This document shows positions 1-47,865 of a DNA stretch of 62,146 nucleotides, in pieces. The first letter of the stretch is position 1, and each line of letters begins with the position of its first letter. A program made the translations under genes and the position numbers. The stretch comes from a virus (Duplodnaviria > Caudoviricetes). The DNA lies in the IMG/VR virus record IMGVR_UViG_3300033183_000484, positions 1 to 62,146 of that record, one strand, 5' to 3'. The notes beneath the pieces are model-generated. The model had not been told where the DNA came from. It saw nothing but the letters and a program-made list of their open reading frames with translations, and made no database searches.

Positions 1-228
1 AATGCCATCGCTGCTCCAATTGCCTTGGATTGTGATGCCTTCGTGCAGAACGGAGCGACGTTTGTCGGTGACGCTGCCTTCCCGATAGGGCGGCACGAAG
101 GGTTTGCCTGGGGCTTTGGGGAGATCGTCAAAGGCCTCGACGGGTGATGGTGTCAGGGTGGCTTTGGGCGCAGGCATGGGGGTGTCCGGCTCAGTGCTGG
201 ATAGTTTCGATTTGAACTTTGACAGCAT
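1..228 (-). CDS. Bactofilin-like (polymer-forming cytoskeletal) protein, N-terminal part, runs off the window
   Basis: Manual translation from ATG at 228 (not in ORF track): MLSKFKSKLSSTEPDTPMPAPK...KRRSVLHEGITIQGNWSSDGI. A Pro-rich leader is followed by a bactofilin-like SVxxxGxTIxGNxxSDG beta-helix start; open to the window edge. Confidence 0.6.
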   Translation of the reverse strand, partial: MLSKFKSKLSSTEPDTPMPAPKATLTPSPVEAFDDLPKAPGKPFVPPYREGSVTDKRRSVLHEGITIQGNWSSDGI

Positions 229-274
229 GGGATGCGCCCTTTTCTAAAACCATATGGGGCAGATGGGCGAGGAA

Positions 275-288
275 TGACCGTTCGGTCA
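275..288. promoter_or_regulatory. Palindrome TGACCG-TT-CGGTCA in the divergent intergenic region, possible operator
   Basis: Perfect 6-bp arms, located between the two divergent start codons at 228 and 331. Confidence 0.3.
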
Positions 289-330
289 AGAGCATCGCAG
301 GCCTTCATATCCTTTTGATGGAGAGAAAAC

Positions 331-1272
331 ATGGCACGAGCCCAAGGGGCGCGGGCGCAAATGGCGCTGGCCTTTGAGACGACCTATGGGGTTCCACCGA
401 TGAGTGGGTATACGCAAATCCCCTTCACGAGCACCACGCTGGGGTCTGAGCAACCGCTGCAGACCTCGGAGGTCTTGGGCTATGGGCGTGATCCGCAAGC
501 GCCTGTGAAAGATGCGGTCACGGCGGATGGCACGATCGTTGTGCCCATTGATGTGGAGAGCTTTGGGTTTTGGTTGACGGCGGCCTTTGGGGTGCCTGTC
601 ACGAGCGGCGATCAGGCGCCTTTTACCCATGAGTTCCGCTCAGGGTCTTGGGCTTTGCCATCGTTTACGGTGGAGACGGCGATGCCGGAGGTGCCACGCT
701 ATGCGCTCTATGCCGGCTGCAAGGTCGATAGCGTGTCGTGGCAGATGGCGCGGTCGGGGCTTTTGACGGCGACGGTCAGTGTGATTGCCCAAGGCGAAGA
801 AGTCTCTGGGAGTTCGTCGGTCGGCACTGTCGAGACGATTGAGCTGAGGCGTTTTGGGCATTTTAACGGAACAATCACCCGCAATGGCCTGGCGATTGGC
901 AATGTCGTCTCTGTTGATCTGACCTATTCCAATACCCTCGATCGGATTGAGACCATTCGCTCGGATGGGAAAATTGATGGGATTGATCCCTCGATTGCGG
1001 CGCTGACCGGGAGCATCACGGTTCGCTTTGCAGATCAAACATTGGTCACCCAAGCGATCAATGGTGAGGCTTGCGCGTTGGAGTTCTCCTACGCGCTTCC
1101 CACCGGCGAAAGCCTGACCCTGACCGCGCACGCTGTCTACCTGCCGCGTCCCCGGATCGAGATCTCTGGCCCGCAAGGGGTACAGGCCAGTTTTGACTGG
1201 CAGGCTGCCAGTGATCCGGTGCTGGGCCGGATGTGCACTGTGACACTGACCAATGATCGCGAGGTATACTGA
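331..1272 (+). CDS. Phage tail tube (major tail) protein
   Basis: 313 aa, beta-rich, MARAQGARAQMALAFETTYG N-terminus typical of alphaproteobacterial siphoviral tail tubes; GGAGA RBS; lies before chaperone and tape measure genes. Confidence 0.8.
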   Translation: MARAQGARAQMALAFETTYGVPPMSGYTQIPFTSTTLGSEQPLQTSEVLGYGRDPQAPVKDAVTADGTIVVPIDVESFGFWLTAAFGVPVTSGDQAPFTHEFRSGSWALPSFTVETAMPEVPRYALYAGCKVDSVSWQMARSGLLTATVSVIAQGEEVSGSSSVGTVETIELRRFGHFNGTITRNGLAIGNVVSVDLTYSNTLDRIETIRSDGKIDGIDPSIAALTGSITVRFADQTLVTQAINGEACALEFSYALPTGESLTLTAHAVYLPRPRIEISGPQGVQASFDWQAASDPVLGRMCTVTLTNDREVY

Positions 1273-1274
1273 CC

Positions 1275-1637
1275 ATGCTCCGTTTAAATCTCTCCATTGA
1301 GCCGCGTTGGCTTGATCTTGGCCATGGAGTCCGCCTGCTGGTGGAGCCCTTGACCACCGCCATCATGCTGGCTGCGCGCGGTGACCCGGCGATTGTTGCT
1401 GCAGCAGCGGAAGACGAGGCCGCCACGTCCAATGATGATCTCGCGCGGATTGTGGCCAAAGCCGTTGCCCGCATCGTTGTCAAAGATTGGGAGGGCGTCG
1501 GTGATGAGGAGGGCAAACCTCTCGAGGTGACGCCCGAGGGCATTGAGGCACTCTTAGAAATCTGGCCGATCTTTGAGGCCTTCCAGACCAAATACATCGC
1601 GGGTGCGCTGATACTGGATGCAGAAAAAAACGTCTGA
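1275..1637 (+). CDS. Tail assembly chaperone (lambda gpG-like)
   Basis: 120 aa between tube and tape measure genes; ends on slippery A AAA AAC (1625-1631). Confidence 0.75.
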   Translation: MLRLNLSIEPRWLDLGHGVRLLVEPLTTAIMLAARGDPAIVAAAAEDEAATSNDDLARIVAKAVARIVVKDWEGVGDEEGKPLEVTPEGIEALLEIWPIFEAFQTKYIAGALILDAEKNV

Positions 1638-1969
1638 CCGCTCTTGCCGACTGGGAGTTCGGCGGGGGCGGCGGCTATTGCGCGGCCTGTTCCACGATCT
1701 GCCCGGACTGTCCGCGTAACCTCCATAAACCGCTGACCCTTGAGGGCTGGCAGGTCTGGGATCTGGTCCAACGTCTAGGAGGTCAGTTGCGCGTCGCAAG
1801 CGGGATGAGCGGCAGTGTTATCCTCGGCTGGGATATGACTGCGGCGCTTCAACTTGGCGCGGCTCTTGGGCTCTCACCCCTCATCCTCGCGGAACTTCTG
1901 TCGCCCATTGAGGCGGTGATGGTGCGTAAAATCAACGAAACGTCGCAGGCCGAAGCAGGCCTGATCTGA
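1631..1969 (+). CDS. -1 frameshift extension of tail chaperone (gpGT-like)
   Basis: The -1 frame is open from the slippery site to TGA at 1969: RLTALADWEFGGGGGYCAACSTICPDCP...AEAGLI; in frame with track ORF 1787-1969. Confidence 0.7.
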   Translation, partial: RLTALADWEFGGGGGYCAACSTICPDCPRNLHKPLTLEGWQVWDLVQRLGGQLRVASGMSGSVILGWDMTAALQLGAALGLSPLILAELLSPIEAVMVRKINETSQAEAGLI

Positions 1970-2017
1970 CCTCGTCTCTCTCTGGAGCGGGGTCTTATGC
2001 TTTGAGGACACTGAGTG

Positions 2018-4456
2018 ATGGCTGACAAACGTGTATCCGTTCGATTGTCTGCGACGGGCGGCCGCCAGGTGCGCTCTGAGTTGGAGGGGGTTGGCGCGTC
2101 GGGGGCAAAGGGCTTTGGGCGTCTGTCTCGAGAAATGGATCACGCCAATGCGCGGATAGCGGCTTTTGCCCGTCGTGCAAAACTAGCCGGTTGGGCGGCA
2201 GCAACGGCCCTGTCGGCGGCTGTGGTCTCGATGACCCGCTCGACGGTCTCTGCCGCCAATGAAATCTCACAACTCTCCCAAGTGGCCAATGCCAATCCTG
2301 AGGTCTTCCAGCGCTGGTCTGCTGCCTCCGCAACGGTTGGCATCGCGCAGGAAAAACTCGCCGATATTTTGAAGGATGTGAACGACCGGGTTGGGGACTT
2401 CCTGCAGACGGGTGGTGGCCCGATGGCAGACTTTTTTGAAAACATTGCCCCTCGGGTTGGGGTGACGGCGGATCAGTTTGCGCGTTTGTCCGGCCCGGAG
2501 GCTTTGCAGCTTTATGTGGATAGTCTGCAAAAGGCGGGTGTGAACAGCCAAGAGATGACCTTTTATCTTGAGGCCATGGCGTCGGACGCCACACGGCTCA
2601 TTCCGCTGTTGCAGAATGGCGGTGCAGAAATGACCCGCCTTGGGGCGCAAGCCGAGAGGCTTGGGGCGGTGCTTGATGCGGATGCTCTTGCAGCCTTGCG
2701 GCGCTCAGAACTGGCCTTGGTGAGTATTGGTCAGGTCTTCACAGGCCTGCGCAATAAGGTTGCCGTTGCACTCGCACCATCCCTTGAGGCTGTTGCCAAT
2801 GCTTTTGTGGCACTGGCCTCTGAGACCAGTCCGATTGCCAAGGCCTTTGACGCGGTGCTCGCCCATCTTGATCGGCTGGCCATTTATGCCGGCACCTTTG
2901 TTAGTTTTATGGCGGGGCGTTGGGTGGCGGGGATGGCTGCGGCGGCGCTCTCGGTACGGGGTCTGGCCACAACCTTGGTGGTACTCAAAGGGGCGCTCAT
3001 CCGTACAGGCATTGGGGCGCTGATCGTTGGGGCTGGGGAGTTGGTCTACTGGTTTACCCGGTTGTCCTCGGGCGCGGGTGGCTTTGGGGAGGCCATGGGG
3101 CTCTTACAGGATTTGGCCCTTGAGGTGTGGGACCGCCTCACTTTGGGAGCGTGCAGTGTCACTGCGCAGTGGGCTGCGATGTTTTTTGACATGACGCAGG
3201 GTGCGGCAGCGAGCCTGGCAGGAGCGATTGAGAGTGTTGTGGACTTTGGCAATGTCACGGCCAATACCTTTGAGGGGGCGCTCTTGGCCATAAAGGAGAT
3301 CTGGTCACGTTTGCCGGCGGTGATTGGGGATTTGGTCTATCGGGCAGCCAATCGCATGCTGCAGGGCATGGAAGCGATGCTCAATGGGGCCATTGGGCGC
3401 ATTGATGCCTTCACCGGTAAAATCCGAGAGGCATTGGCGGCAATTGGAGTTGAGACCACCTTCGGCACCATTGGAGAAATCTCTCTGGGCGATATTGCCA
3501 ACCCCTATGCGCAAGGGGCTGAGGAGGCGGGCCTTGCCGCCTCGGAGGCCTTCCGCAAAGCCTTTGAGGACAATCCCCTGGCGGTTCCGGACTTTGGTTT
3601 GGAGGGACTTGCTAGGGAGGCCCAAGCGGCGGCGGATCGATCGCGCGAGGCCGCGCAGGATTTGGCGCAGGGTGCGATGGCCCCTCTGACCTCTTGGCAG
3701 GCCTTGAAGGAGGCCGTGACAGGTGCTGGCGATGCGGGATCGTCGGCGCTGGATGAGGCGTCAAGCTCGGCCGATCGGCTCACCTCCGCATTGGGATCTG
3801 CTGCCAGCACAGCCGGATCCGCTGGGGCTCAGGTTCTGACCGGATGGCGTGCTGTTAGGGAGGCGCTCACCTCTTATGCCACGGAGGCGTTGAACTGGGG
3901 CAAGGGACTTGGCGAAACCCTAACAGGCGCCTTTGGTAGCGCGGAAAGCGCTTTCCGAAGCTTCGTCGAGACTGGCAAGTTCGACTTCAAGGGACTCGTG
4001 CGCTCGATTCTGGCCGACCTCGCGGTTCTGTCATTCAAACGCGCGGTCTTGGGCCCGATTGCCTCGGCGCTTTCCGGTGTCTTTGGCGGTGGGTCGGTTG
4101 CAGCGGCTGTTTCTCATGCGGGAGGTATCGTTGGGCTGTCTGGGCATAGTCGCTCTGTGCCTGCACTGGCCTTTGCTGCGGCACCTCGGATGCATGCGGG
4201 TGGTTGGGCAGGCCTTCGTCCCGACGAGGTGCCAACTATCCTGCAACGCGGAGAGAGGGTCTTATCGCGCAACGACATAGCCCGAGGGGTCGATGGGCCC
4301 GCTCCTGTCGCTGTTCACCTCAATGTTGATGCACGTGGCGCACAAATGGGGGTGGCCGAACAAATCACTGCGGTCATACGAAGCGCTCAGCCTGAATTTG
4401 AACGCATCGCAATCGCCGCGGTTGGCAATGCGATGCGCAGGGGGCGCATGGCATGA
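2018..4456 (+). CDS. Tail tape measure protein
   Basis: ~812 aa, Ala/Gly-rich helical; C-terminal HAGG..GLRPDEVPTILQRGERVL motif; position in the module. Confidence 0.9.
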   Translation: MADKRVSVRLSATGGRQVRSELEGVGASGAKGFGRLSREMDHANARIAAFARRAKLAGWAAATALSAAVVSMTRSTVSAANEISQLSQVANANPEVFQRWSAASATVGIAQEKLADILKDVNDRVGDFLQTGGGPMADFFENIAPRVGVTADQFARLSGPEALQLYVDSLQKAGVNSQEMTFYLEAMASDATRLIPLLQNGGAEMTRLGAQAERLGAVLDADALAALRRSELALVSIGQVFTGLRNKVAVALAPSLEAVANAFVALASETSPIAKAFDAVLAHLDRLAIYAGTFVSFMAGRWVAGMAAAALSVRGLATTLVVLKGALIRTGIGALIVGAGELVYWFTRLSSGAGGFGEAMGLLQDLALEVWDRLTLGACSVTAQWAAMFFDMTQGAAASLAGAIESVVDFGNVTANTFEGALLAIKEIWSRLPAVIGDLVYRAANRMLQGMEAMLNGAIGRIDAFTGKIREALAAIGVETTFGTIGEISLGDIANPYAQGAEEAGLAASEAFRKAFEDNPLAVPDFGLEGLAREAQAAADRSREAAQDLAQGAMAPLTSWQALKEAVTGAGDAGSSALDEASSSADRLTSALGSAASTAGSAGAQVLTGWRAVREALTSYATEALNWGKGLGETLTGAFGSAESAFRSFVETGKFDFKGLVRSILADLAVLSFKRAVLGPIASALSGVFGGGSVAAAVSHAGGIVGLSGHSRSVPALAFAAAPRMHAGGWAGLRPDEVPTILQRGERVLSRNDIARGVDGPAPVAVHLNVDARGAQMGVAEQITAVIRSAQPEFERIAIAAVGNAMRRGRMA

Positions 4457-5052
4457 GTACCATAATTGAACTGCCGCGCACTTGGATCACCGCACTCGAG
4501 CGCCGATTGGTTTCTGCAACCAGCCAAACGCAGTCTCCTTTCACCGGAACAACCGAGGTGCAAAATTGGGGAGGCGAATGGTGGGAATATGACATTGAAT
4601 TTGCAACCCAATCTGGCTCCGTAGCCCGCGCGGTCTCCGCAGCACTTACCGCCCTTGGCTCAGGTCAAAACCTACTGCTCCTCGCAGATCCAACCATTAT
4701 TCCTAAGAGCCTTACTTACACGATCACGCTTGCAGCGGAAGTGACCGGCAGCCACGTGATCCATACCCAAGGTTGGCCCCCTAACCTTCCCGCTATGGCC
4801 TCCGGCGATTTTTTCTCAGTCGGAGCCGCACGCGATACACGTTTGCACCAAATTACGTTTGATGCATCAGCAGACAGCAACGGCATTGCAACGTTAACAA
4901 TCTTTCCAGCCATTCGTGGATCCTTACCTGCAAACACACCCCTCGAAGTCAATCAGCCGCAGGTCCTTTTACGCCCAACCAATCCTGTCCCTACCCGAAT
5001 TGAGCGGGTCGCCCGCCACCGCTTCACTATGTCAGCTCGAGAGGCCCTATGA
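4453..5052 (+). CDS. Putative distal tail protein
   Basis: 199 aa, ATGA-coupled to the tape measure gene; SPFTG..Q.W.GEWWEY motif. Confidence 0.6.
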   Translation: MSTIIELPRTWITALERRLVSATSQTQSPFTGTTEVQNWGGEWWEYDIEFATQSGSVARAVSAALTALGSGQNLLLLADPTIIPKSLTYTITLAAEVTGSHVIHTQGWPPNLPAMASGDFFSVGAARDTRLHQITFDASADSNGIATLTIFPAIRGSLPANTPLEVNQPQVLLRPTNPVPTRIERVARHRFTMSAREAL

Positions 5053-5609
5053 GCCGAGACCTATCAGCAACTGTTGCCGAAGCATTAGGCAGCTCCGACC
5101 TACGCCCCGCACTCTTTTTTGAAGGAGTATTTCCATCTGGTGTCGTTCGGATTTGGACCGGGCTAGGCTCAATCGATTGGGACAGCAAAAAATGGACCGG
5201 TGTTGGCAGCCTCCTCAGCTTTGGGTCTTTAGAGGAAGCCTCTGACGTTGTGGCCTCTGGTACCTCAGTTTCGCTCTCAGGCGTGCCATTAGATCTCGTA
5301 GCGCTCGCAATTGAAGAAGCCCGTCAAGGCCAGGCGGGACGTATATGGCTCGCGTTTCTCGCTCAAGATCGCACCGTTCTTGCCGACCCTATGCAGGCGT
5401 TTTCGGGACGATTGGATGTCCCGGAACTGCAAGAGGATGGTCAAACGTGTCGGATTACGATCAGCTATGAAAACCGACTGATTGACCTCAGTGCTCCACG
5501 CAGTTGGCGTTATACCCATGAAAGTCAGCAAGTTCTTTTCCCAGGCGATCGCGGATTTGAACATGTCACAGCCATTCAAGATCAAGAAGTCACTTGGGGG
5601 CGTGGCTAA
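5049..5609 (+). CDS. Minor tail / baseplate hub protein
   Basis: 186 aa, coupled to upstream gene; C-terminal RYTHESQQVLFPGDRGFEHV...WG motif seen in siphoviral tail tip genes. Confidence 0.6.
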   Translation: MSRDLSATVAEALGSSDLRPALFFEGVFPSGVVRIWTGLGSIDWDSKKWTGVGSLLSFGSLEEASDVVASGTSVSLSGVPLDLVALAIEEARQGQAGRIWLAFLAQDRTVLADPMQAFSGRLDVPELQEDGQTCRITISYENRLIDLSAPRSWRYTHESQQVLFPGDRGFEHVTAIQDQEVTWGRG

Positions 5610-6022
5610 TGGAGCACCCGCGCGTTCCCCATTGGGAAGAGATCTTACAAACAGCTTTTTCTGCTGCAGGTGAACGTCCCTTTGTATGGGGCCACCATGA
5701 CTGCGCAACCTGGGCTTTTGATCTGCGCCGTGACCTCACACTTGGCCCAGACCATGCCGCCCTTTGGCGCGGTCGATACAGTACACCGATTGGGTCTCAG
5801 CGTATCTTGCGTAAGCTTGGGTGGCAAAATTTTGAGGATGGCGCTCGAGCATTGCTGGGAAAGCCGCTCGCAGATCCACGCTTCGCACGACGCGGCGACC
5901 TGGTCCTCGGAGGAACTCCCGAAGCCTTTGGTATCGTCTTCGGGGCAAAGGCTGCATTCTTAGCCCCCAAGGGTCTGGTGTACCTGCAGATTTCTGCCTG
6001 CCGCCTTGCGTGGAGGACCTGA
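5609..6022 (+). CDS. NlpC/P60-like tail assembly protein (lambda gpK-like position)
   Basis: FVWGHHDCA and ARRGDLV motifs; TAATG overlap with upstream gene. Confidence 0.65.
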   Translation: MEHPRVPHWEEILQTAFSAAGERPFVWGHHDCATWAFDLRRDLTLGPDHAALWRGRYSTPIGSQRILRKLGWQNFEDGARALLGKPLADPRFARRGDLVLGGTPEAFGIVFGAKAAFLAPKGLVYLQISACRLAWRT

Positions 6023-6025
6023 GAG

Positions 6026-8623
6026 ATGCCACCTGTCGTTCTTGGAGCTGTAGCACTCGGGGGCGCTGCCATCGCCGCAGGAGGTGTGGCAGCCGCCTTT
6101 GCCGCAACTGGGCTTGTTGGCTTTGCGGCCTCCTTTGGGGCCTCGATGCTTCTATCGGCTGCGGCTCAGGCGTTAATGCCGACACCCAGCCTCGGACAGA
6201 TGGAAATGAAGGCGCGCACCGTGACAGTCCGCGAGCCCGTAATGCCAAGAGAGCTCGTTTATGGCCGCGTGCGCAAAGGAGGCGTGATTGTTTTCCTGCA
6301 TGCTACAGGCACGAAGGATAAAGACCTACACCTTGTCATCGTCTTGGCGGCACATCAGATCAAATCGATTGGGGCGATCTATTTTGAAGGCGAAGAAGCC
6401 ATTGATGCATTGGGCACACCTCAAGGCAGATGGTCAAACAAACTCTCCGTCGAAAAACGCCTTGGCACCGATGATCAGACAGCCTTTACAGGGTTAATAG
6501 AGGCGGCGCCCGAATTTTGGACAGAACATCATCGCTTGGCTGGCTGCGCGGCATTGTATCTGCGCCTCACATATGATCCCGACGTTTTCCCAAGCGGCAT
6601 TCCAAACATCACCGTCGATGTAGAGGGCAAGGCCGATATCTTAGACCCAAGATCGAACACAGAAATCTACACCGATAATGCCGCGCTCTGTATCGCCGAT
6701 TACATGTCACATCCTCTCTACGGAATCGGCGCTGAAGTTGGACAAGACGATGGCCTTGATCTCGACAGCCTGATTGAGGCGGCAAACATTTGTGATGAGA
6801 CGATCTCTCTTGCAAAGGGAGGAACCGAGCCACGCTATACCTGTAACGGCGTCGTATCCCTATCAGAACCTCCAAAAACGATCATTGAGGCGATGCTCAC
6901 AGCGATGGCAGGTCGAAGCATATGGAGAGCCGGACAGTGGCATCTCCTTGCAGGCGCATATCGGGTTCCAGAGACGACACTGACAGCCGATGATGTCCGC
7001 GACGGCGGGATGACACTGACGACGCGGCAAAGTCGCATGTCAAATTTTAATGCTGTGCGTGGGCAATTTGTAAGCCCAGACAACAACTGGCAGCCAGATG
7101 ACTTTCCGGCCTACGCCAGCGAAGTTTACCGACTGGAGGACAATGGCGAGCAGGTCTGGCGAGATATCTCCCTGCCCTTCACGATTTCCCCATCGATGGC
7201 TCAGCGGCTTGCCAAAATTGAATTGGAACGTGCTCGACGGCAAATGACACTCAGGGTCTCTGGAAAATTGAAGGCCTGGCGTGTCGCTGCCGGCGAAACA
7301 ACCTTTGTCACCTATCCGCGCTGGGGCTTCGGAGGCGCAGAGGGATCACCCGGAAAGCCCTTTGAGATCGAAGGTGTAAGGCTCGACTTAAACCAGGTTG
7401 GTCATGGGCCACGCCTGGCACCTGAATTGATGCTGAGAGAAACTTCTCCACGCGTCTATGACTGGGATGCCTCAGAAGAACAGATTTATGAGGCAGCTCC
7501 ACGTACAACACTGCCTACAGCATTTGATATCGCCCCACCCGGCGCACCGCAAATGTCAGAAGAACTCTATGTGACGCGCGATGGCTCGGCCGTTAAAGTC
7601 TTACTTCGCATGACTTGGGAACCGGCGGCCTCAGGCTTTGTGGACACATATCAGGTCGAAACCCGTCAAAATGGCGGGAATTGGATAGATCGTGGCCGCA
7701 CGACTGGAACGATGATGGAGGTACGGGACATTGAGCCTGGCCAATGGGACGTTCGCATCAAGGCGTTGTCCGTTTTGGGTGTCTCTTCAGTTTGGCGCGA
7801 CGGCGCAATGGAGGTTATGGGCTTAACCGCTCCCCCGGAAGTTCTATTGGGACTGACGATCCAATCCGCTGGTGGGCTAGCTATCCTCAAATGGCAACGC
7901 TCAGTTGATGTGGATGTTCGAGTGGGCGGCAATATCATCATCCGCCACAGCAAAGAGGCCACAGCCAGCTGGGCCAATTCTACGCTTATGGACCGTGTCT
8001 CTGGCAGTGAAGCTATTGCGGTCGTGCCGTTAAAACCCGGAACTTATTTATTACGTGCAGAAGACAGTGAGGGCCGCATAGGCCCCGTGACCACGGTCAC
8101 AACCAAAGGGGTCCAAATTTTAAGCTTCGCACAGTTGAACACTTTGGTAGCGGAGCCTTCGTTTGAGGGATCGAAAACCAATCTCAAAACTGCCAGTGCA
8201 ACCTTGCAACTTACAAGCAGCCCCAATTCCAACGGGCGCCCAGAGGTGGAAGCTCTTGAAGGTCTCTACAATTTTGCAAGTCGTCTAGACTTTGGAGAAC
8301 TCAAACGTGTGCGATTGCGCTCAGATATTATGGTCGGAGCAGCCGCTCTGTCCGATTACATTGATGATCGCGTCACCCCTATCGACACTTGGGCAGACTT
8401 CGACGGATCTGAGGGAGCGGACATCGACGTTGTCCTTGAGGTGCGCGAAACCGACGACGATCCAACAACATCAAACCCATCTTGGGGGCCATGGGGTCGC
8501 ATCGACAATAGTGAAATCGAAGCGAGAGCGGTCGAAGCGCGGGCGTGGCTGCGCACGAATGACCCAGCCTTTACGCCAATTGTTTCGGAATTACGGCTGA
8601 TAGCAGATGAGGTTTCATCGTGA
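6026..8623 (+). CDS. Tail tip / host-specificity protein (gpJ-like) with FN3-like domains
   Basis: 865 aa; PRELVYGR, NAALCIADY, RYTCNG and FN3-like W..P...Y.V segments. Confidence 0.85.
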   Translation: MPPVVLGAVALGGAAIAAGGVAAAFAATGLVGFAASFGASMLLSAAAQALMPTPSLGQMEMKARTVTVREPVMPRELVYGRVRKGGVIVFLHATGTKDKDLHLVIVLAAHQIKSIGAIYFEGEEAIDALGTPQGRWSNKLSVEKRLGTDDQTAFTGLIEAAPEFWTEHHRLAGCAALYLRLTYDPDVFPSGIPNITVDVEGKADILDPRSNTEIYTDNAALCIADYMSHPLYGIGAEVGQDDGLDLDSLIEAANICDETISLAKGGTEPRYTCNGVVSLSEPPKTIIEAMLTAMAGRSIWRAGQWHLLAGAYRVPETTLTADDVRDGGMTLTTRQSRMSNFNAVRGQFVSPDNNWQPDDFPAYASEVYRLEDNGEQVWRDISLPFTISPSMAQRLAKIELERARRQMTLRVSGKLKAWRVAAGETTFVTYPRWGFGGAEGSPGKPFEIEGVRLDLNQVGHGPRLAPELMLRETSPRVYDWDASEEQIYEAAPRTTLPTAFDIAPPGAPQMSEELYVTRDGSAVKVLLRMTWEPAASGFVDTYQVETRQNGGNWIDRGRTTGTMMEVRDIEPGQWDVRIKALSVLGVSSVWRDGAMEVMGLTAPPEVLLGLTIQSAGGLAILKWQRSVDVDVRVGGNIIIRHSKEATASWANSTLMDRVSGSEAIAVVPLKPGTYLLRAEDSEGRIGPVTTVTTKGVQILSFAQLNTLVAEPSFEGSKTNLKTASATLQLTSSPNSNGRPEVEALEGLYNFASRLDFGELKRVRLRSDIMVGAAALSDYIDDRVTPIDTWADFDGSEGADIDVVLEVRETDDDPTTSNPSWGPWGRIDNSEIEARAVEARAWLRTNDPAFTPIVSELRLIADEVSS

Positions 8624-8850
8624 CCCAAATTCAAAGTTTCGTGATTATTAACGACAATGGAGCTGCCGTACGCGCTCAGATCAATCAGGTTCTGCTCGCG
8701 CTCAGATCGACCAATAGCGGTAGCCTTGAACCGACAGCCACCGCGCCTGGCATGCTCTGGTTGGACACCAGCACCACACCATCGACGCTCAAACTACGTG
8801 ATGTCACAGATAGCCTATTTGAACCGCTTCTCGACGGAGGTTCATATTGA
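8620..8850 (+). CDS. Small tail-tip associated protein
   Basis: 76 aa; GAAVRAQIN..L.AL and PGMLWLDT fibre-anchor-like motifs; ends LLDGGSY. Confidence 0.55.
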   Translation: MTQIQSFVIINDNGAAVRAQINQVLLALRSTNSGSLEPTATAPGMLWLDTSTTPSTLKLRDVTDSLFEPLLDGGSY

Positions 8851-8888
8851 TCGGCCCCTCAACTCGAATTCTGCAATGGGAGGCATCC

Positions 8889-9200
8889 ATGCCGGAACCT
8901 GGCTTTTTAGAAACATTGAACAGCCTTTTTGGTGGCGCGCTAACCACGCTGATCGGCGCTTTTACCGGTCGGTTGATGTATCATTCCGGTGAGGTCAAAC
9001 TGGGTCGCCGACGTTTTTTTGGAAAAGAACTCTTGTGGGAAATCCCCGTCGCGATTGGGATGGCCATCATCGGGGAAGGCATTGCGCGGTATTTAGAGCT
9101 TGGCCAACCCGTGAGTACTGGCCTTGTGGCCACCCTCGCCTATCTGGGACCTCGAGGTGCAGAAGCCTTGATGACTTCTTGGTTCAGCCAAAAGAAATAA
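8889..9200 (+). CDS. Putative holin
   Basis: 103 aa with 2-3 hydrophobic segments and basic C-terminus; GGGAGG RBS; upstream of endolysin. Confidence 0.65.
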   Translation: MPEPGFLETLNSLFGGALTTLIGAFTGRLMYHSGEVKLGRRRFFGKELLWEIPVAIGMAIIGEGIARYLELGQPVSTGLVATLAYLGPRGAEALMTSWFSQKK

Positions 9201-9227
9201 ACTTCACATGATCGCCAGCGCCATTGC

Positions 9228-9280
9228 GAACCATAAGAACCATAAGAACCATAAGAACCATAAGAACCATAAGAACCATA
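9228..9280. repeat. Tandem 9-bp repeat (GAACCATAA)x5 + GAACCATA
   Basis: Units start at 9228, 9237, 9246, 9255, 9264 and 9273. Confidence 0.95.
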
Positions 9281-9321
9281 CCCACTTCTCGGCAATGAGC
9301 CATCAAAACGAAAGATTGATC

Positions 9322-9546
9322 ATGACCGACATCGCGAGTGTTCTGTCACAAATTTCGCAAGCCTCAGATCCGGTCGAAGCACTTCGATCCGCGATCTTAG
9401 AGCAGGATGGAGCCTGGCCAAATGAGAACGCAACTGGCCTCTTCGAAATACAGCTGCATCGTGTCATTGGCCTCGGTCCCTCTCAGCAGGCCGCAGTCGA
9501 TGACTGGATCGTACAAGCTCGTATTCGGGCAAAAAGCACCCCATAA
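9322..9546 (+). CDS. Hypothetical protein inserted between holin and endolysin
   Basis: 74 aa from ATG at 9322; the longer track ORF simply reads through the repeat. Confidence 0.55.
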   Translation: MTDIASVLSQISQASDPVEALRSAILEQDGAWPNENATGLFEIQLHRVIGLGPSQQAAVDDWIVQARIRAKSTP

Positions 9547-9605
9547 ACCAGCGTTTATCGGCTGAAATCACAAATCCACCTCAAATCCTTTTGACATCCA
9601 ACACG

Positions 9606-9630
9606 GCCGCCCTTTCGGGGCGGCTTTTTT
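9606..9630 (+). terminator. Rho-independent terminator
   Basis: GCCGCCC-TTTCG-GGGCGGC stem-loop followed by T6. Confidence 0.75.
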
Positions 9631-9645
9631 GCATGGGAGACTATC

Positions 9646-10578
9646 ATGACACCCTTTGAGATTGCCCTTGGGTACCTCGGAACATCAGAAGCACCCGGCG
9701 ATGCCAACAACTCAGCTATCATGGCAATGTACCAGAGCGTTGGACAAGATTGGGTCGAACATGACTCCGTCGCCTGGTGCGCCGCCTTTGTCGGACACTG
9801 CCTGGAAAAAGCAGGGGTTCGATCGACGCGCAAACTGACCGCTCGGTCTTATCTCACATGGGGCATCTCGGTCGAACTCGCGAACGCACGCCAGGGTGAC
9901 ATTGGCGTCATTCCGCGCGGACGTTCGGCTTGGCAAGGCCACGTCTTTTTTATTGATCGGATCGAGGGCGCCTGGGTGTGGGGTTTGGGCGGAAATCAGT
10001 CGGATACCGTATCTATCAAACGGTATCCTGCCTCAAAGCTCTTAGGGATCAGACGAGCTGGCTCTCAGCGTGCGGCGGTATCATTGACGATCGAGGCTGC
10101 GCAAACAAAATTACGGGACCTCGGGTATCATGAAGTAGGTCAAATCGATGGAATACTGGGGACACGTACCCGTGCAGCGCTATTAGCGTTTCGAGATGAC
10201 CATGACTTACCACTCATTCCTATTATTGATACGGCGCTCGAAGAGGCCCTAGCGCTTGCGCGCCCACGCAAAATTGCCCCTTCACGAGCCGAAGGTATCC
10301 CTAAACGCAGCCGCATTTTGGCAGCAGCAAATAAGCAAATCGGATTGGGTGCCCTTGGGCTAATCGGATCGATTGGCACACAAATAGTTCCCGTTTTAAC
10401 CAAGGCGGAAGAGGCCAAAGAAACGGCTGATCGGCTCGTCTCACTCGCGGGCCTTGACGCCTCTCTCACTGGTGCACTTCCGTGGATTGGCGCCGCAGCG
10501 TTCGGTGTGATGATGATCCTGGCACTGAGAGCCCGTTCAGCGCGGATAGACGACCACCGATCGGGGCGCACTCCATGA
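9646..10578 (+). CDS. Endolysin: NlpC/P60/CHAP-type (TIGR02594-like) domain + peptidoglycan-binding domain + C-terminal hydrophobic segments
   Basis: AWCAAFV (Cys), QGHV (His), LGGNQSD; AQ.KL..LGY...IDG..G..T..A...F PG-binding motif. Confidence 0.85.
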   Translation: MTPFEIALGYLGTSEAPGDANNSAIMAMYQSVGQDWVEHDSVAWCAAFVGHCLEKAGVRSTRKLTARSYLTWGISVELANARQGDIGVIPRGRSAWQGHVFFIDRIEGAWVWGLGGNQSDTVSIKRYPASKLLGIRRAGSQRAAVSLTIEAAQTKLRDLGYHEVGQIDGILGTRTRAALLAFRDDHDLPLIPIIDTALEEALALARPRKIAPSRAEGIPKRSRILAAANKQIGLGALGLIGSIGTQIVPVLTKAEEAKETADRLVSLAGLDASLTGALPWIGAAAFGVMMILALRARSARIDDHRSGRTP

Positions 10579-10832
10579 GTGGCCTATTTCGAAATCTATT
10601 AGTTCCGATTGGGCGACGTGCGGTGTTTTACGCCCTCGTCCTCTTAGCCGCCCTGACGGCACTTTGGACGGCCGCGCGCCATGGACGCCAAGCCGCAGAG
10701 GTTGCCCTGGCTTTACGGCAGGCCAACGCCCGTATCCGAATAATGAAACGCGCAAAGGACATTCGTCATGACACGCAATCTATTGACCGCGCTGACCTTG
10801 ACCGTCGGGCTGATCGCTGGATGCGGGATTGA
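10575..10832 (+). CDS. Putative inner-membrane spanin (Rz-like)
   Basis: N-terminal TM segment then helical region; ATGA-coupled to endolysin. Confidence 0.55.
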   Translation: MSGLFRNLLVPIGRRAVFYALVLLAALTALWTAARHGRQAAEVALALRQANARIRIMKRAKDIRHDTQSIDRADLDRRADRWMRD

Positions 10833-10971
10833 TCCAAACCACCTCGGGACAGACTGTGCTTGGGCCGAGCCCATTCGGACATCGCGTCAAGATGTCATGA
10901 GCGACACCACCCTTTCACAAATCGTTGCACATAATGACCTCGGCGCGCAGCTCTGCGGATGGGAGCCATGA
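10768..10971 (+). CDS. Putative outer-membrane spanin lipoprotein (Rz1-like)
   Basis: Signal peptide with lipobox LIAG-C; overlaps the 3' end of the previous gene in another frame. Confidence 0.6.
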   Translation: MTRNLLTALTLTVGLIAGCGIDPNHLGTDCAWAEPIRTSRQDVMSDTTLSQIVAHNDLGAQLCGWEP

Positions 10972-11321
10972 TGCCCACAACCACAACTGAAGGCCCTGCC
11001 CTTCTTATCGGTTATGGATGGCGACTGCAGATAGAAACGGATGCCGCCATGTTCACCGAAGGTGCACAATATATTGGTCAAATACGTGAACGCCCGAACG
11101 CTTCAGAAATATTAGCGACAATCGACAGTGCTACCGGTGGAGCCATAAGGATTAGCGATCAGATCCTCGAACTTTCGCTCCGCCCTGATCAAACAAATGC
11201 ACTCTCCCCTGGTCGCGTTGTTATGGATCTCGTCCGAATAGACATCGATCCTGATCTTCACCTTGGATTTGTACTGGAAATTCCGGTGGTCTTACCCATT
11301 ACCCGAGGACTTGGACCGTGA
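10968..11321 (+). CDS. Phage structural/adaptor hypothetical protein
   Basis: 117 aa, beta-rich, coupled to upstream gene; precedes fibre genes. Confidence 0.5.
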   Translation: MMPTTTTEGPALLIGYGWRLQIETDAAMFTEGAQYIGQIRERPNASEILATIDSATGGAIRISDQILELSLRPDQTNALSPGRVVMDLVRIDIDPDLHLGFVLEIPVVLPITRGLGP

Positions 11322-11524
11322 CGACACTCACACCTCAAACAGGGCCAATCACTATCACCGCACCAATCAGGACCCGCGTGCTCACAGGGCCAGTGCGGAT
11401 CCACTTGGCCGGCCAACCAGGACCAGAGGGCATGGTCGGACCACAAGGCGAAAAAGGGGATCAGGGCGCTCCCGGCATCACGATTTTACCCACCGACACC
11501 CCAATTAATGGAGGCTTCTTCTGA
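11318..11524 (+). CDS. Small collagen-repeat protein
   Basis: GQPGPEGMVGPQGEKGDQGAPG; ends INGGFF. Confidence 0.65.
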   Translation: MTTLTPQTGPITITAPIRTRVLTGPVRIHLAGQPGPEGMVGPQGEKGDQGAPGITILPTDTPINGGFF

Positions 11525-12639
11525 TGGCTAACTCTATCCAATTCAAACGGCGCCAGGCGGGGGCCGCCGGCGCGCCTTCGACGCTGAAATCCGGTGAGGT
11601 CGCTCACAATGAAGTTGATGATACACTCTACATTGGCAAAGGCGACGACGGTGCGGGCAACGCTACGGGCATTATACCGCTGGCTGGGCGTGGTGCATTT
11701 ATCGATATTAATGGATCACAAACGATCGGAGGCACTAAAACCTTTGCTCTTGTTCCCAAGTCTGCCCAAGACGCAACGGGGGCAACAGAGCTCATCCGCA
11801 AATCGCAATTCGATCTCAGCCTTTCTCAGAAATCCAATGCCGGCCATGGCCATGCAGTGTCGGATGTCTCAGGGCTTGAAGAAGCTCTAGCGGGCAAGTC
11901 CGCAACAGGGCACGGGCACGCGATTGCAGAGGTGACGGGGCTTCAAGAAGAGCTGACCGCGAAAGCTCCGCTGGCGTCTCCAGCTTTAACCGGAACGCCG
12001 ACGGCGCCCACAGCGGCCGCAAATACAAATACAACGCAGCTTGCGACCACTGCTTTTGTTCAAACAGCGCTTGCGGGCTTTGGGGCGGGCGACATGCTGG
12101 CCGCCACCTATGATGCGGATGGAGACGGTAAGGTGGATGCGGCGGAGGTGGCAGATGCTGCGCCTTGGGCTGGCATTACCGGCAAGCCCACGACCTTCGC
12201 ACCTTCCGCTCACGGACATGGGATCTCTGAGATCACGGGGTTGGAGACCGCCTTAAATGCAAAAGCACCTCTCGCTTCTCCCGTGCTCACGGGGACACCA
12301 ACGGCTCCGACCGCAGCGCAGGGCACAAACAGCACCCAGCTTGCGACCACGGGCTTCGTGGCCGCCGCAATCGGCGCTTTGATTGATGCCGCACCTGGGG
12401 CTCTGAACACGCTCAATGAATTGGCTGCCGCCTTGGGTGATGATCCCAGTTTTGCCAGCACCGTGACCAATGGTTTGGCGTCCAAACTGCAAGCTTCGCT
12501 GAACTTGAGTGATCTCACCAATATAGCCACGGCACGCGGCAATTTGGGACTTGGGTCGATGGCCACGCAGGTTGCAACCGATGTGGCCATCACAGGGGGC
12601 ACGATCACAGGCATTGCGCTTGATGGCGGGACCTTCTGA
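11524..12639 (+). CDS. Tail fibre protein
   Basis: Mtd_N-like start (IQFKR...GE.....DTLYIG); three HGH repeats; two KAPLASP.LTGTPTAPTAA..TN.TQLATT.FV repeats; APGALNTLNELAAALGDDP motif; ends LDGGTF. Confidence 0.85.
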   Translation: MANSIQFKRRQAGAAGAPSTLKSGEVAHNEVDDTLYIGKGDDGAGNATGIIPLAGRGAFIDINGSQTIGGTKTFALVPKSAQDATGATELIRKSQFDLSLSQKSNAGHGHAVSDVSGLEEALAGKSATGHGHAIAEVTGLQEELTAKAPLASPALTGTPTAPTAAANTNTTQLATTAFVQTALAGFGAGDMLAATYDADGDGKVDAAEVADAAPWAGITGKPTTFAPSAHGHGISEITGLETALNAKAPLASPVLTGTPTAPTAAQGTNSTQLATTGFVAAAIGALIDAAPGALNTLNELAAALGDDPSFASTVTNGLASKLQASLNLSDLTNIATARGNLGLGSMATQVATDVAITGGTITGIALDGGTF

Positions 12640-12707
12640 GCCTGCAACGCGTCACGCTTCACAGTCACTTCCCACTCTTTAACTGACGGCAGCCAAGAGG
12701 AGGCCGC

Positions 12708-13454
12708 ATGGCCAGTACAATCACTCACAAGCGTTCCGCGATTGCAGGCAAAGTGCCCACTGTGGCGCAGCTTGCTCTCGGAGAAATCGCGATCAACACG
12801 CGCGATGGTAAAATCTACATCAAGCGCGATAATGGTACCGCCCAAGTCCTTGAGATCGGGGCAACGGGGCCGCAGGGTCCGGAAGGACCAGCCGGGCCAC
12901 AGGGCCCCATCGGTCCTACCCAATTCCCACTAGCGCAGCCCAGCGCCACCACGGGTGCTGTCTACTTCAATCCCAGTGATCAAAAGCTTTACGTCTACAA
13001 CGGCGACCATTGGGGTGGTGTCCGCTTTACCAACCCCTATCTCAATCTCGTCACAGGGTTAAATAATAACCTCTTCGCCAATGGTGCCGTCCACGGGGAT
13101 GTAGGGATCGGCTATACGGGCACCACCTATGTTCCGCCCTCGACGAGCGACAACCAAGTGGTGTCCTATCGTTTTACAAACTTACGGGCGACGGGGTCTG
13201 TCAACGTGATGGGGACTGTGAGCCCGACCAGCAGTACGGTTTCTGGCAATGACCGCGATATCACCATCACGAAGAATGGGGTCACCATTGCCAGCACAGG
13301 CGGTCCTTATGGCCCCTACACGACCGTCGTCGCCACCAGCATTGCTCCAAACGATGTCTTTGAGTGGAAAATCCGTGACGTCTACTGGCGCTACTCGGCC
13401 AGTGGCGCCCAAGCCGACAATTGCAAGATCACAACAGGGAGCAGTCTCACATGA
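12708..13454 (+). CDS. Second tail fibre / receptor-binding protein
   Basis: Mtd_N-like start (KRS...GEIAINTRDGKIYIK), collagen stretch, GAVYFN...LYVYNG..W, beta-rich C-terminus. Confidence 0.75.
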   Translation: MASTITHKRSAIAGKVPTVAQLALGEIAINTRDGKIYIKRDNGTAQVLEIGATGPQGPEGPAGPQGPIGPTQFPLAQPSATTGAVYFNPSDQKLYVYNGDHWGGVRFTNPYLNLVTGLNNNLFANGAVHGDVGIGYTGTTYVPPSTSDNQVVSYRFTNLRATGSVNVMGTVSPTSSTVSGNDRDITITKNGVTIASTGGPYGPYTTVVATSIAPNDVFEWKIRDVYWRYSASGAQADNCKITTGSSLT

Positions 13455-13789
13455 TGTATCACTGGACAGATGAAACCCATCGCGCTGTGCGGGTTATCGA
13501 CGACAGTGTCCCTCTCGACGATCAGGCGCCGCGTATCATAACGGATCGGGATCCAGGCTGGGCTAAGCTGCCTTTTGAGGAGGTGCAGCAGGCGCCGATC
13601 GACGACTACCTCCTCCTACAGCGAGTTCGGAAAAAACGCGATCTGCTGCTTCAGGAGAGTGATTGGACGCAGCTCATTGACGCACCTGTCGATCGCGAGG
13701 CTTGGGCAGACTACAGGCAGGCGCTTAGGGATCTGCCGCAGCAGGATGGGTTTCCGGGGGAGGTGGTGTGGCCTGAGGTGCCGAGTTAA
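13451..13789 (+). CDS. Tail fibre assembly chaperone
   Basis: R..RDLLL.ESDWTQL.DAP...W..YRQALRDLPQQ.GFP..V.WP motif. Confidence 0.85.
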   Translation: MMYHWTDETHRAVRVIDDSVPLDDQAPRIITDRDPGWAKLPFEEVQQAPIDDYLLLQRVRKKRDLLLQESDWTQLIDAPVDREAWADYRQALRDLPQQDGFPGEVVWPEVPS

Positions 13790-14797: not shown

Positions 14798-16912
14798 TCA
14801 ATTTCTGATGTAGGTCACATAAAAGCCCTTAATGATGCGGTGCTCTTGCAACCGATCACTGAGCGAAAACCCGTCCTTCTTGATCGGCGCCTGGAAAATA
14901 TCGAGACCGCGGTCCAGCACGATCTTCCACCCAGTATCGGTGACTATGTCGCGCGCATGCGCTGTTCCTGTGCCATCGAACGCCCATGTGAATTCAACGC
15001 CCGAGCCGACACAGGCGTCGACGATCGAGTCCAGCAATTCGCGTTGCTTCCCGACATTGCCGTCATCTGGCCCTGTGACGAGGTGAACACTGACCTGGTC
15101 CTCGGGCGATTTCCGCCGAATTACCATTTCGACGAATTCCATCATGTTTCGGATTTGATAGAAGTATCGTACATAGGGGTCTGTCACGATGATCTTTGAC
15201 GCGCCTTCGATGTAAGGACCGAAGAGCCGATCGTAGCTGATACCCTTGCGATCCTCTGTGAAGACATGGTGGCCTTCTTCGAGAACGGGCTTCGCCTCTG
15301 CTTTGACGCGACGCGCCGCCTCCAAAGCAGGCCCAGACGTCGCTGCCCCTTCGTCACCTGCAGATGTGGACTCACCGGAACCGGTTGACGTCTCTGACTG
15401 TTCCTGCTCCTTGGGATCCAGCGCAGGCTTGAGGTGATAGAAGTGCGGGTATTCTTCCTCCTCGACCGTGGTCACACGGCGCTTGGATCCGTCCGTGCCA
15501 AGGTAGTGGAAATCAACCTCGGGATAGGTACTGTCGATGCGAGCCAGTTGATCCTTGACCCGCTTGCGGCTCTCCATTGCAAGGCGCAGCAGTTCTTCGA
15601 CATCCTCGGCCGTCTCGCCGCCATTCGGGAAGATCAGCTTCAGCAGGCCCGACATCGTCTTGTAGATCGCATCCCGATCCCGCGTCGAAATCTTCTCGCT
15701 AATCTTGAAATGCTGGTCCGGCCGGTGCGAGAAATCCTCCTGGCGCAGGTGGCGCAGGATCTCGGCGAGGTAGTCGACGATGAAGCCATATCCCTTGGTG
15801 AACATCTCGCCGCGGATCACGTCGATTTCCCAGCCGGGCAGATAGGCATGCAGACGATCGATGAAGGCCGAGTCATGGAACTGCGGCGGCAGAGCCTCGA
15901 AGAGGTCGCTGTTTTTCAGCATGAAGGGCACGTTGTGGTCGGTGTTGCCGACAAACGCAAAACTGGCCTCGGCCCCCATCGGGTTCACACCCCGAGAGAA
16001 GGTCTTGTTGGCCATATAGTTTTTCATGATGTCGACCAGCGCCTTGTTCGCTGTCTTTTCTCGACCAGCGAACTCATCAAAGGCCACGACATCCCAGTAG
16101 CCGACAAGGCCAATGCGCCCGTTCGAGTTGTTCACAAAGAGCTTCGGGATCGTCACCTCGCCACCTGAGATCAGCTGACCATGTGGCGAAAACTCCGAAT
16201 AGATGTGCGATTTACCGGTCCCTTTGGGCCCAAGCTCAATGATGTTGTAGTTGCGTTCCACGAAGGGGATCAGGCGCATCAACTGCAAGAGCTTCGCCCG
16301 ACGCCCGAAAGCCTCCGGGTTGAACCCGATGCTTTGCATCAGAAGATCGATCCAATCGTCCGTATTGAAACTGCCCCGCGCCTCCCGGTAACCCTCATAA
16401 TCGACCTTGGCGATCTGGATGGGCTTGATGGTCTCGAGGATCCACGGCGAAATGCGCGCATCTTCAGAAAACTCATATTGCACATCCGCGATGCACCAGA
16501 CGCCAGTCACAAGAAGCTTTGGGTGCGCCTTGATCGTGCCGCTGTCGACCGCGACCTTCTTGATCCCGAGGTTGTCGAAGGTCGCCTCGTAGCTGTCGGT
16601 CTTCTCGTTCAACGACACGCTGATCTGGTCAATGACCTTGTAGCGCCCCTTTTCCTTGATCGTTGACTGGATGAGCCCCGCTTCGCTGCGGTGGACATAA
16701 TGCTTGCGCAGGATTTCCTTAACGGTCTCGATGCCAGTCGCGATCGATGCCTCGTCGTCGGTGGCGCAGTACTGCCCCAGGAGATACTCGAGCACATAGG
16801 TCGGAACGATCGCGTTCCCCTTGACCGCCTTCACCAGGTCCTTGCGCACGACAAAGCCCGCGAAATGTTCATTGATCCTGGCGTCGAGATCACTCATGGG
16901 CCCGCTCCTCAA
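14798..16912 (-). CDS. brxL: BREX BrxL-family AAA+ protein with C-terminal PLD/MIT_C-like domain
   Basis: VPTYVLEYLLGQYC N-domain, Walker A GPKGTGKS, FDEF; C-terminal TDPY...HARDIVTDTGWKIVLDRGLDIF; last gene of the BREX run. Confidence 0.9.
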   Translation of the reverse strand: MRSGPMSDLDARINEHFAGFVVRKDLVKAVKGNAIVPTYVLEYLLGQYCATDDEASIATGIETVKEILRKHYVHRSEAGLIQSTIKEKGRYKVIDQISVSLNEKTDSYEATFDNLGIKKVAVDSGTIKAHPKLLVTGVWCIADVQYEFSEDARISPWILETIKPIQIAKVDYEGYREARGSFNTDDWIDLLMQSIGFNPEAFGRRAKLLQLMRLIPFVERNYNIIELGPKGTGKSHIYSEFSPHGQLISGGEVTIPKLFVNNSNGRIGLVGYWDVVAFDEFAGREKTANKALVDIMKNYMANKTFSRGVNPMGAEASFAFVGNTDHNVPFMLKNSDLFEALPPQFHDSAFIDRLHAYLPGWEIDVIRGEMFTKGYGFIVDYLAEILRHLRQEDFSHRPDQHFKISEKISTRDRDAIYKTMSGLLKLIFPNGGETAEDVEELLRLAMESRKRVKDQLARIDSTYPEVDFHYLGTDGSKRRVTTVEEEEYPHFYHLKPALDPKEQEQSETSTGSGESTSAGDEGAATSGPALEAARRVKAEAKPVLEEGHHVFTEDRKGISYDRLFGPYIEGASKIIVTDPYVRYFYQIRNMMEFVEMVIRRKSPEDQVSVHLVTGPDDGNVGKQRELLDSIVDACVGSGVEFTWAFDGTGTAHARDIVTDTGWKIVLDRGLDIFQAPIKKDGFSLSDRLQEHRIIKGFYVTYIRN

Positions 16913-26427: not shown

Positions 26428-26431
26428 CGGG

Positions 26432-44989: not shown

Positions 44990-45038
44990 ATTTTGGTTGC
45001 GGGGGTAGGATTTGAACCTACGACCTTCAGGTTATGAG
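44990..45038 (-). repeat. att site: duplicated 3' half of tRNA-fMet
   Basis: 49 bp, 46/49 identical to 61975-62023; identity ends at the anticodon loop. Confidence 0.95.
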
Positions 45039-45179
45039 GCGCTCCAGTGCGGGCACAATACCTTCGCAATATCAGTGGCTTAGACAGATTTTCACGACGC
45101 AACGTCATTCACGTGTCGCACGGAAACGCCGTAAGCCGTTGGGAAAAAACGGGAATCCGGTCACGGGATTCACCAGCGC

Positions 45180-45473: not shown

Positions 45474-45553
45474 CGCCTCCTCCAAACAGTGCAACCCAAT
45501 GCCTCGACTGTATTGTGCCGCGTCATGGCGATCAAGGCCGCGACGGGCCCCTG

Positions 45554-47784: not shown

Positions 47785-47865
47785 GGCCACTCCCGAAAGA
47801 GTTCTGCAGCCCGCGATGCATGCGCGGGCTGCTATTTCCCCAGATGCACAGAGAACGCTTTCAGA

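Follow-up and report, generated by a model that had tools for sequence, protein, structure and literature searches.

A tail, lysis and fibre gene block probably cut by the contig edge, and a separate capsid-encoding island, in a Rhodobacterales virus record

The IMG/VR record IMGVR_UViG_3300033183_000484 is a single contig of 62,146 bases, and its entire length, hereafter the window, was analysed. Two blocks of phage genes are found in it: tail, lysis and fibre genes at 1-13789, and an island with packaging and capsid genes at 44990-62023. The two are separated by 31.2 kb, in accordance with the approximately 31 kb given in the initial annotation, which had described the first block as a head-less tail and lysis module, either a domesticated flexible tailocin or a tail donor for the neighbouring element. 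Coordinates of the individual genes of both blocks are collected in Table 1. Family matches confirmed all the components which had been listed at 331-13789, i.e., tail tube, chaperones, tape measure, tip, holin, endolysin, spanins and fibres. The frames of chaperones G and T are joined by an A7 slippery site (AAAAAAA, 1624-1631), predicted to give the classic -1 G/GT frameshift. No sheath family was matched among the scanned open reading frames (ORFs) of the block, and near 13.8-14.8 kb there was no attachment (att)-like repeat of the tRNA-Met.

Upstream of the tube gene lies a divergent gene, whose start at 228 leaves 102 bp to the ATG of the tube; it runs to base 1 through 76 codons without a stop. 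The fragment by itself had no family match. Its full-length counterpart of 162 amino acids on another contig, L081, matched PF04519 (Bactofilin, E 2.7e-22), and residues 1-76 of this protein share 95% identity with the fragment, which bears out the earlier designation as bactofilin-like. The record stops 330 bp upstream of the tube gene, in the middle of a gene. The tube gene is indeed the first in its run, as pointed out initially, but this reflects nothing more than the end of the record, which falls at base 1 within the bactofilin ORF. In IMG/VR the record is classed as linear, a category for sequences lacking end repeats, many of them fragments, and CheckV puts its completeness at 26. No terminal overlap between the two ends was found, and the right end does not carry on the bactofilin reading frame which exits at the left end. 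A circular record, with head genes leading into tail genes across the ends, was considered and rejected on these grounds and since the last 91 bp were unmatched in the relative L083. When the whole window was searched in six frames at E<=1, the profiles of gpFII (PF05354), DUF6441 and the tail terminator (phrog_4204) found no match, as expected if these genes lie just past base 1. In lambda the head-tail joining set consists of gpW, gpFII, gpU and gpZ. The claim that neither block has a gpFII-, gpU- or gpZ-like gene held for gpFII and the terminator, while a gpW-like adaptor in the island had been missed.

Two IMG/VR contigs gave the context to the left of the tube in close relatives. An exact search with 39 bases from the very start of the window returned a sole contig, L081, with 93.7% nucleotide identity to window 1-1929 and reaching 919 bp further left. 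These 919 bp comprise the remainder of the bactofilin gene, followed on the same strand by an SNase-family gene (PF00565, E 6e-11). The same stretch holds, on the strand of the tube, the last 84 amino acids of a tail terminator, 61% identical to the C-terminus of the terminator of locus L041 (phrog_4204, E 1.8e-31). A search with the full bactofilin led to L083, a contig of 40,277 bp with 91.6% nucleotide identity over window 1-1929 and 2017-4260, and with amino acid identities of 96.8% for the tube and 93% for the tape measure. In the orientation of the tube, L083 carries TerS, TerL, portal, ClpP protease, gpD, gpE, gpFII, DUF6441 and terminator, then a nuclease-bactofilin pair on the opposite strand, and then the tube. 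The bactofilin had been supposed to occupy the place where joining and terminator genes normally sit; in the relatives it is an insert between terminator and tube. Contrary to the head-less description, a head and connector module just left of the tube, with the bactofilin as an insertion, was thus found by proxy in relatives of 92-94% identity. The SNase-family nuclease gene adjoins the bactofilin in both contigs, the bactofilin/nuclease region being at 259-1147 in L081 and 10001-10886 in L083; in L041 the bactofilin is at 9518-9904. In addition, L083 has a tRNA-Met of elongator-like type and a tRNA-Leu just before the tail terminator (11360-11527), and contigs from marine metagenomes pile up on the bin of L083.

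A genome scan with the tube protein matched at least 600 stretches, of which at least 487 were confirmed. The best 80, from Rhodobacterales and allies with 65-81% identity, were kept, and head and connector proteins from L041 and from the window were used to map them. Firstly, of the 50 loci whose upstream sequence extends 8.8 kb or more, 48 had TerL, portal or capsid genes there on the same strand. Secondly, the terminator was located within 2.4 kb of the tube in all 67 loci with at least 1.3 kb upstream, directly adjacent to it in 42 and with an insert between them in 25. A minus-strand bactofilin preceded the tube in 13 of the 75 loci with at least 600 bp upstream, and every one of the ten bactofilin-slot loci with at least 6 kb of flank had head genes. 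Siphovirus prophages of Rhodobacterales thus recurrently carry an opposite-strand bactofilin between tail terminator and tube, and with direct adjacency in 42 of 67 loci and inserts in the rest the junction is a moron slot, with the bactofilin as one recurrent occupant. No description of a prophage bactofilin was found among the titles and abstracts listed by literature searches. Two types of head accompany this tail, one with ClpP, gpD and gpE, and another with a protease-capsid fusion and a cement protein (12 of the 80 loci). The relatives of the window block have a gpW-like protein, gpFII (PF05354) and terminator (phrog_4204) in lambda-like positions.

Among isolated phages, the same tube family is found with 54-55% amino acid identity in the Rhodobacter capsulatus siphophages RcKemmy, RcDormio, RcOceanus and relatives (GenBank MW677517 and others). 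The annotated order in RcKemmy is TerS, TerL, gpW-like protein, portal, capsid-protease fusion, a hypothetical protein, a gpFII-like head-tail attachment protein, two minor tail proteins, tube, frameshifted chaperone and tape measure; the RcKemmy group and the window block share the late order on through the tip, with holin and endolysin thereafter. The terminase and portal of RcKemmy-type phages are of lambda type, and their capsid is fused to a protease, as in the island (34-35% amino acid identity). The window block differs from RcKemmy in the bactofilin insert before the tube, in its tip and in a fibre set placed after the lysis genes, and the metagenomic relative closest to it, L083, has no fusion capsid but a head of the ClpP/gpD/gpE type. 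RcKemmy is moreover an isolated virion genome, whereas the window block is a prophage fragment.

We put the probability at roughly 90% that the tail block stems from an ordinary temperate siphovirus prophage of lambda-like type, of which it is the right half, and that the edge of the assembly falls within a moron slot. Bases 1-13789 would be the tail, lysis and fibre half of a Rhodobacterales prophage whose left half was lost to the record where assembly stopped, at base 1. The missing half would hold the remainder of the bactofilin, probably the small nuclease gene, then terminator, DUF6441, gpFII, and the head and packaging genes, with replication genes and integrase expected still further left; the bactofilin would be a moron in the known terminator-tube insertion slot. 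Upon induction the tail genes would build a flexible tail to be joined to heads of the same phage, with lysis of the cell brought about by the holin-endolysin-spanin cassette. That the copy in the window has retained its heads is something we infer from its relatives, whereas its gene content, the truncation and the gene context in relatives are direct observations. Several points weigh against the truncated prophage. The left flank of the window copy itself is beyond the record, and attempts at extending the left end gave nothing: a metagenome scan with the bactofilin protein confirmed 0 of 244 stretches, the 39-base pattern of the edge had 0 matches in metagenomes, and of the words sampled from window 1-4000, the best public sequencing runs contained a share of 0.26-0.32 and none a share above 0.32. 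In principle, a rearrangement might lie behind the break of the assembly within the moron slot. Finally, two of the 50 relatives mentioned above, L021 and L032, have 10 kb of upstream flank and yet no head genes, and head loss does therefore occur in this phage group. Contigs from the sequencing runs (X1, X2, X6, X7), compared with L083, were short pieces of many relatives, listed at up to 1.3 kb, none of which bridged the tube to head genes.

The second block spans 17,034 bp between the outer ends of 49-bp repeats, of which the right one overlaps an initiator-type tRNA-Met gene. No further copy of the tRNA-Met 3' repeat was found in the window beyond chance matches of 10-14 bp; the same chance matches were all that was obtained when an extra tRNA fragment was sought as a boundary of the prophage or of the region at 14-45 kb, and this possibility was dropped. 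Likewise, the tRNA-Met of the island site was rejected as a phage-borne gene, since the tRNA-Met of L083 differs from it, elongator-like versus initiator-like. Neither tail nor lysis genes were found between the island repeats, and an HNH family was not among the Pfam matches of the island ORFs scanned. The best match of the island capsid in the phage collection was at 37%. The segment between TerL and portal, 52995-57380, is occupied by a complete type III restriction-modification pair together with a Phd-like antitoxin. From gene content and family context the block is well supported as a separate att-flanked, tail-less, capsid-encoding island in an initiator tRNA-Met gene, resembling a capsid-forming phage-inducible chromosomal island (cf-PICI). 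The complementary head set of the initial annotation was accordingly a capsid-encoding element in its own right, whose TerS had been overlooked, and not the other half of the phage. The island would make its own capsids, and it carries no recognised tail, lysis or head-closure genes.

According to published descriptions, cf-PICIs are elements of about 10-18 kb with an integrase, a replication module, their own TerS, TerL, portal, protease, capsid and adaptor, and no tail or lysis genes; an AlpA/MerR/Stl-type regulator, a head-tail connector and an HNH endonuclease are further named (bioRxiv 10.1101/2025.02.11.637232; PMC10085698). Compared with, e.g., EcCIEDL933 and KpCIDSM30104, the island agrees in size, att flanks, integrase, primase, TerS, TerL, portal, protease, capsid and adaptor, in the absence of tail and lysis genes, and in the presence of defence cargo. 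It differs in that no connector was found by sequence searches (the PF05354 profile in the window at E<=1, and tblastn with gpFII in the best 80 relatives), in that no HNH match was obtained in the scanned ORFs, and in its gpA-type terminase, fused protease-capsid and the cargo slot between TerL and portal. The adaptor Ad1 follows the capsid gene, unlike lambda gpW, which precedes the portal. Hosts of the island are Rhodobacterales, while the main text of PMC10085698 contains neither "Alphaproteobacteria" nor "Rhodobacter".

An IMG/VR scan with the capsid fusion matched 231 stretches, of which 227 were confirmed; the best 80, with 79-86% identity in the capsid gene, were kept, and many matches came from records of 14-20 kb. 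Among the best 80 of the 227 loci, portal was present in 79, Ad1 in 77 and cement in 68, whilst TerL (44 loci) and TerS (33 loci) were present wherever the locus extends that far. In none of these 80 was there a match to tube, gpJ, holin or lysin, or to gpFII (by tblastn), DUF6441, terminator, ClpP, gpD or gpE. The TerL-portal slot holds differing cargo or none across the family, and the stretch after the cement gene varies as well. The family is described in none of the titles or abstracts listed by the literature searches. The phrog_32542 protein occurs in only 10 of the best 80 loci; in L105 (3742-4071) and L106 (4583-4912) its gene has TAG at two conserved Trp positions while neighbouring genes are free of stops, and it is likely a pseudogene in both. 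Four loci, L105, L106, L109 and L112, have a permuted gene order, i.e., portal, capsid, Ad1, cement, integrase, primase, TerS, TerL, which points to circular or concatemeric forms, or to tandem copies; no terminal overlap was found in any of the four.

The co-occurrence of island and tail was scored in 401 genomes of one Rhodobacterales family, that of G001, the genome of L041. A genome was counted as island-positive if it had the capsid gene at 77% identity or more, near full length or split at a contig edge. Altogether 93 genomes matched the capsid at E<=1e-30; 12 of the 401 had an island-type capsid gene and 4 more had partial copies, while the 77 with matches of only 30-52% were scored as island-negative. 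The tube gene was present in 83 of the 401 genomes, in 8 of the 12 with the island against 75 of the 389 others (one-sided Fisher p=6e-4, kinship ignored). With the partial copies included, the numbers became 11 of 16 against 72 of 385. The myovirus sheath (PF04984) served as a control: it was present in 32 of the 401 genomes, in 1 of the 12 with the island and 31 of the 389 others (p=0.64). On contig 40 of G155 an island of the same family stops at 6038; less than 2 kb on, a complete prophage of this tail family follows, its integrase-like gene at 7808-8272, its TerL at 30084 and its tube at 39456. No tRNA was detected by aragorn in 55 kb of this contig (L170-L172, 1-45000).

These data suggest a helper relation between the island and this type of phage, which is plausible though unproven, and the initial proposal of a tail donor stands to that extent. 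The prophage, with or without heads of its own, would provide tails and probably a gpFII-type closure protein to the island capsids; the island would pack its DNA into small capsids of its own, with TerS and TerL likewise its own, and would exit by the lysis genes of the phage. Such a relation is compatible with a truncated prophage and adds only a link between the blocks; we hold it tentatively, at slightly short of an even chance. In its favour are the cf-PICI features of the island, most of those named in the descriptions referred to above being present, and the lack of tail, lysis and closure genes throughout the best 80 island loci. A homologous head set of protease-capsid fusion and cement is present in 12 of the 80 loci of this tail type, and Ad1 of the island is 43% identical to the gpW-like protein of the full G155 phage, which lies next to an island. 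The enrichment of the tube gene, which the sheath control does not share, points in the same direction. On the other side, 4 of the 12 island genomes lack the tube gene, the sampled genomes are related, so that shared ancestry or host range may explain a part of the enrichment, and the connector genes of the prophage lie off the record.

The head-less block of the initial annotation, a deletion derivative kept as an F-type tailocin or as a dedicated tail source, is in our opinion very unlikely. F-type tailocins, such as F-pyocins and monocins, consist of lambda-like flexible tail genes with their own lysis cassette and by definition lack head genes. The window block is similar in having tube, tape measure and tip without a sheath, as well as a lysis cassette, although ordinary prophages have the latter too; its tail, lysis and fibre genes all look intact, and its left flank is off the record. 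The base rate of two head-less loci in 50 sets the probability of this alternative, lowered further by L081, with a terminator in place, and by L083, with a full head module left of the same bactofilin. With heads in 48 of 50 and terminators in 67 of 67 relatives, the head-less appearance is most likely an artefact of the contig end. The closest relatives with the same bactofilin insert keep their heads, as in L083 and the ten loci with sufficient flank, and no conserved chromosomal site or tailocin regulator was seen. In L021 (6515-8625) a gpFII remnant of 69 amino acids adjoins a truncated serine recombinase and host genes, and in L032 (7073-9477) an IS21 IstB gene and host genes adjoin a terminator-like gene. 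Both apparently lost their heads by deletion, and with such scars at the breakpoints they look like decay rather than domestication.

Even less probable is that the block, having lost its heads as L021 and L032 did, was kept beside a defence island as a standing supply of tails, closure and lysis for the capsid island, so that a marine alphaproteobacterium would carry a two-part particle factory in its chromosome. Far likelier is a milder version, to which we would give nearly even odds: an ordinary complete prophage acting as tail donor, with the island as an undescribed connector-less branch of capsid-forming satellites in Rhodobacterales. We can practically discard the idea that the two blocks are halves of one phage, which came apart when the genome rearranged or when the 31-kb defence region was inserted: both are on the plus strand, together have most late functions and belong to related gene families, but the island has its own att repeats in a tRNA-Met gene, integrase and primase, its TerL, portal and capsid reach no more than 36-49% identity with their counterparts in phages carrying this tail, its family of 227 confirmed IMG/VR matches is tail-less in all of the best 80, the nearest relative of the tail block has the other type of head (ClpP, gpD, gpE), and the record does not close into a circle.

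The locus is a cautionary case, as a gene run which starts at the edge of a record cannot be called incomplete. The island family is sizeable, with 227 confirmed IMG/VR matches and a presence in 12 of the 401 genomes sampled from one Rhodobacterales family, and combines terminase, portal, capsid, a gpW-like adaptor and defence cargo between TerL and portal with an enrichment for one siphovirus tail type. If the helper relation proved true in a culturable roseobacter, tail piracy by capsid-forming satellites would be extended to marine Alphaproteobacteria, and such a system could show whether a satellite can borrow a head-closure protein besides the tail.

Table 1. Features of the tail block and of the island in the window of 62,146 bases.
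Feature	Position	Strand	Matches and remarks
Bactofilin gene, first 76 codons, cut by record end	1-228	-	95% identical to L081 residues 1-76
Divergent intergenic region bactofilin/tube, 102 bp	229-330		read from sequence
Tail tube protein	331-1272	+	PF18906 (E 5e-58); phrog_290; 96.8% amino acid identity to L083, 55% to RcKemmy tube
Tail assembly chaperone G	1275-1637	+	phrog_313 and PF24752 (for 1275-1969)
GT extension, frame open 1577-1969	within 1275-1969	+	DUF7697
Tape measure protein	2015-4456	+	phrog_8462 (E 8e-109); PF09718
Distal tail protein; tail protein; DUF6950 protein	4453-5052; 5049-5609; 5594-6022	+	phrog_1302, phrog_2048, phrog_2134; PF22262
gpJ-like central tail fibre / tip protein	6026-8623	+	phrog_5616 (E 1e-99), phrog_31; PF13550
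Small conserved ORF, start of lysis cassette (8620-10971)	8620-8850	+	
LydA-type holin	8847-9200	+	lysis cassette matches: phrog_126, phrog_1259, phrog_1026, phrog_1275; PF16083, PF01471
Unknown ORF in lysis cassette	9208-9546	+	
Endolysin with peptidoglycan-binding domain	9646-10578	+	
Inner spanin	10482-10832	+	
Outer spanin lipoprotein	10768-10971	+	LIAGC lipobox
Unknown ORF, fibre module (10959-13789)	10959-11321	+	module matches: phrog_2631, phrog_17885, phrog_4912; PF12789, PF16778
Collagen-like protein	11318-11524	+	
Tail fibres (repeat-bearing)	11524-12639 and 12708-13454	+	
Fibre assembly chaperone	13421-13789	+	
Left att repeat, 49-bp copy of tRNA-Met 3' end	44990-45038		46/49 bases identical to 61975-62023
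Tyrosine integrase	45554-46657	-	PF00589, phrog_1
phrog_37409 protein	46791-47570		
Helix-turn-helix-like ORF, AlpA position	47473-47784		phrog_18541 (function not assigned); weak helix-turn-helix match (E 0.005)
Primase/helicase	47866-50307		Toprim + DUF5906, phrog_2249
TerS	50625-51143	+	phrog_57 (E 4e-32)
gpA-type TerL	51127-52935	+	PF05876, PF20454 (nuclease domain of terminase)
Phd-like antitoxin	52995-53183	+	PF02604
Type III methylase	53187-54737	+	MTase_III (E 6e-186)
Type III restriction enzyme	54750-57380	+	REase_III (E 5e-192)
Lambda-family portal	57471-58883	+	PF05136
Protease-major capsid fusion	58846-60780	+	phrog_4523 (E 3e-230)
gpW-like head-tail adaptor Ad1	60777-60995	+	phrog_2545 "head-tail adaptor Ad1" (E 2e-18)
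Cement/decoration protein	60999-61343	+	PF09956
Accessory phrog_32542 protein	61340-61681	+	phrog_32542
Initiator-type tRNA-Met gene (61979-62055) with right att repeat (61975-62023)	61975-62055	-	

Between the two blocks neither an integrase nor a tRNA fragment was found. The stretch holds a type 1 BREX (bacteriophage exclusion) system with a WYL regulator at 14798-28583. Its BrxC is split in two minus-strand ORFs (22906-26427), of which 23413-26427 corresponds to positions 2-1001 of the 1172 in the profile and 22906-23328 to 1033-1172; given this split, the system may be broken. Further defence-like genes are found in DNA of lower G+C at 28.7-44.5 kb. Within the low-GC segment 31865-44526 there is an SbcB-like exonuclease, matching "RTasSbcB" of PADLOC (E 8e-162), together with an SSB protein. 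The same segment contains a cluster of five genes on the minus strand, coding for two large proteins of unknown function, two coiled-coil proteins with PDC-M26A and LmuB/JetC-like matches, and an SF1 helicase-DUF559 nuclease with MkoA/Hhe-like matches, which we regard as a candidate defence system.

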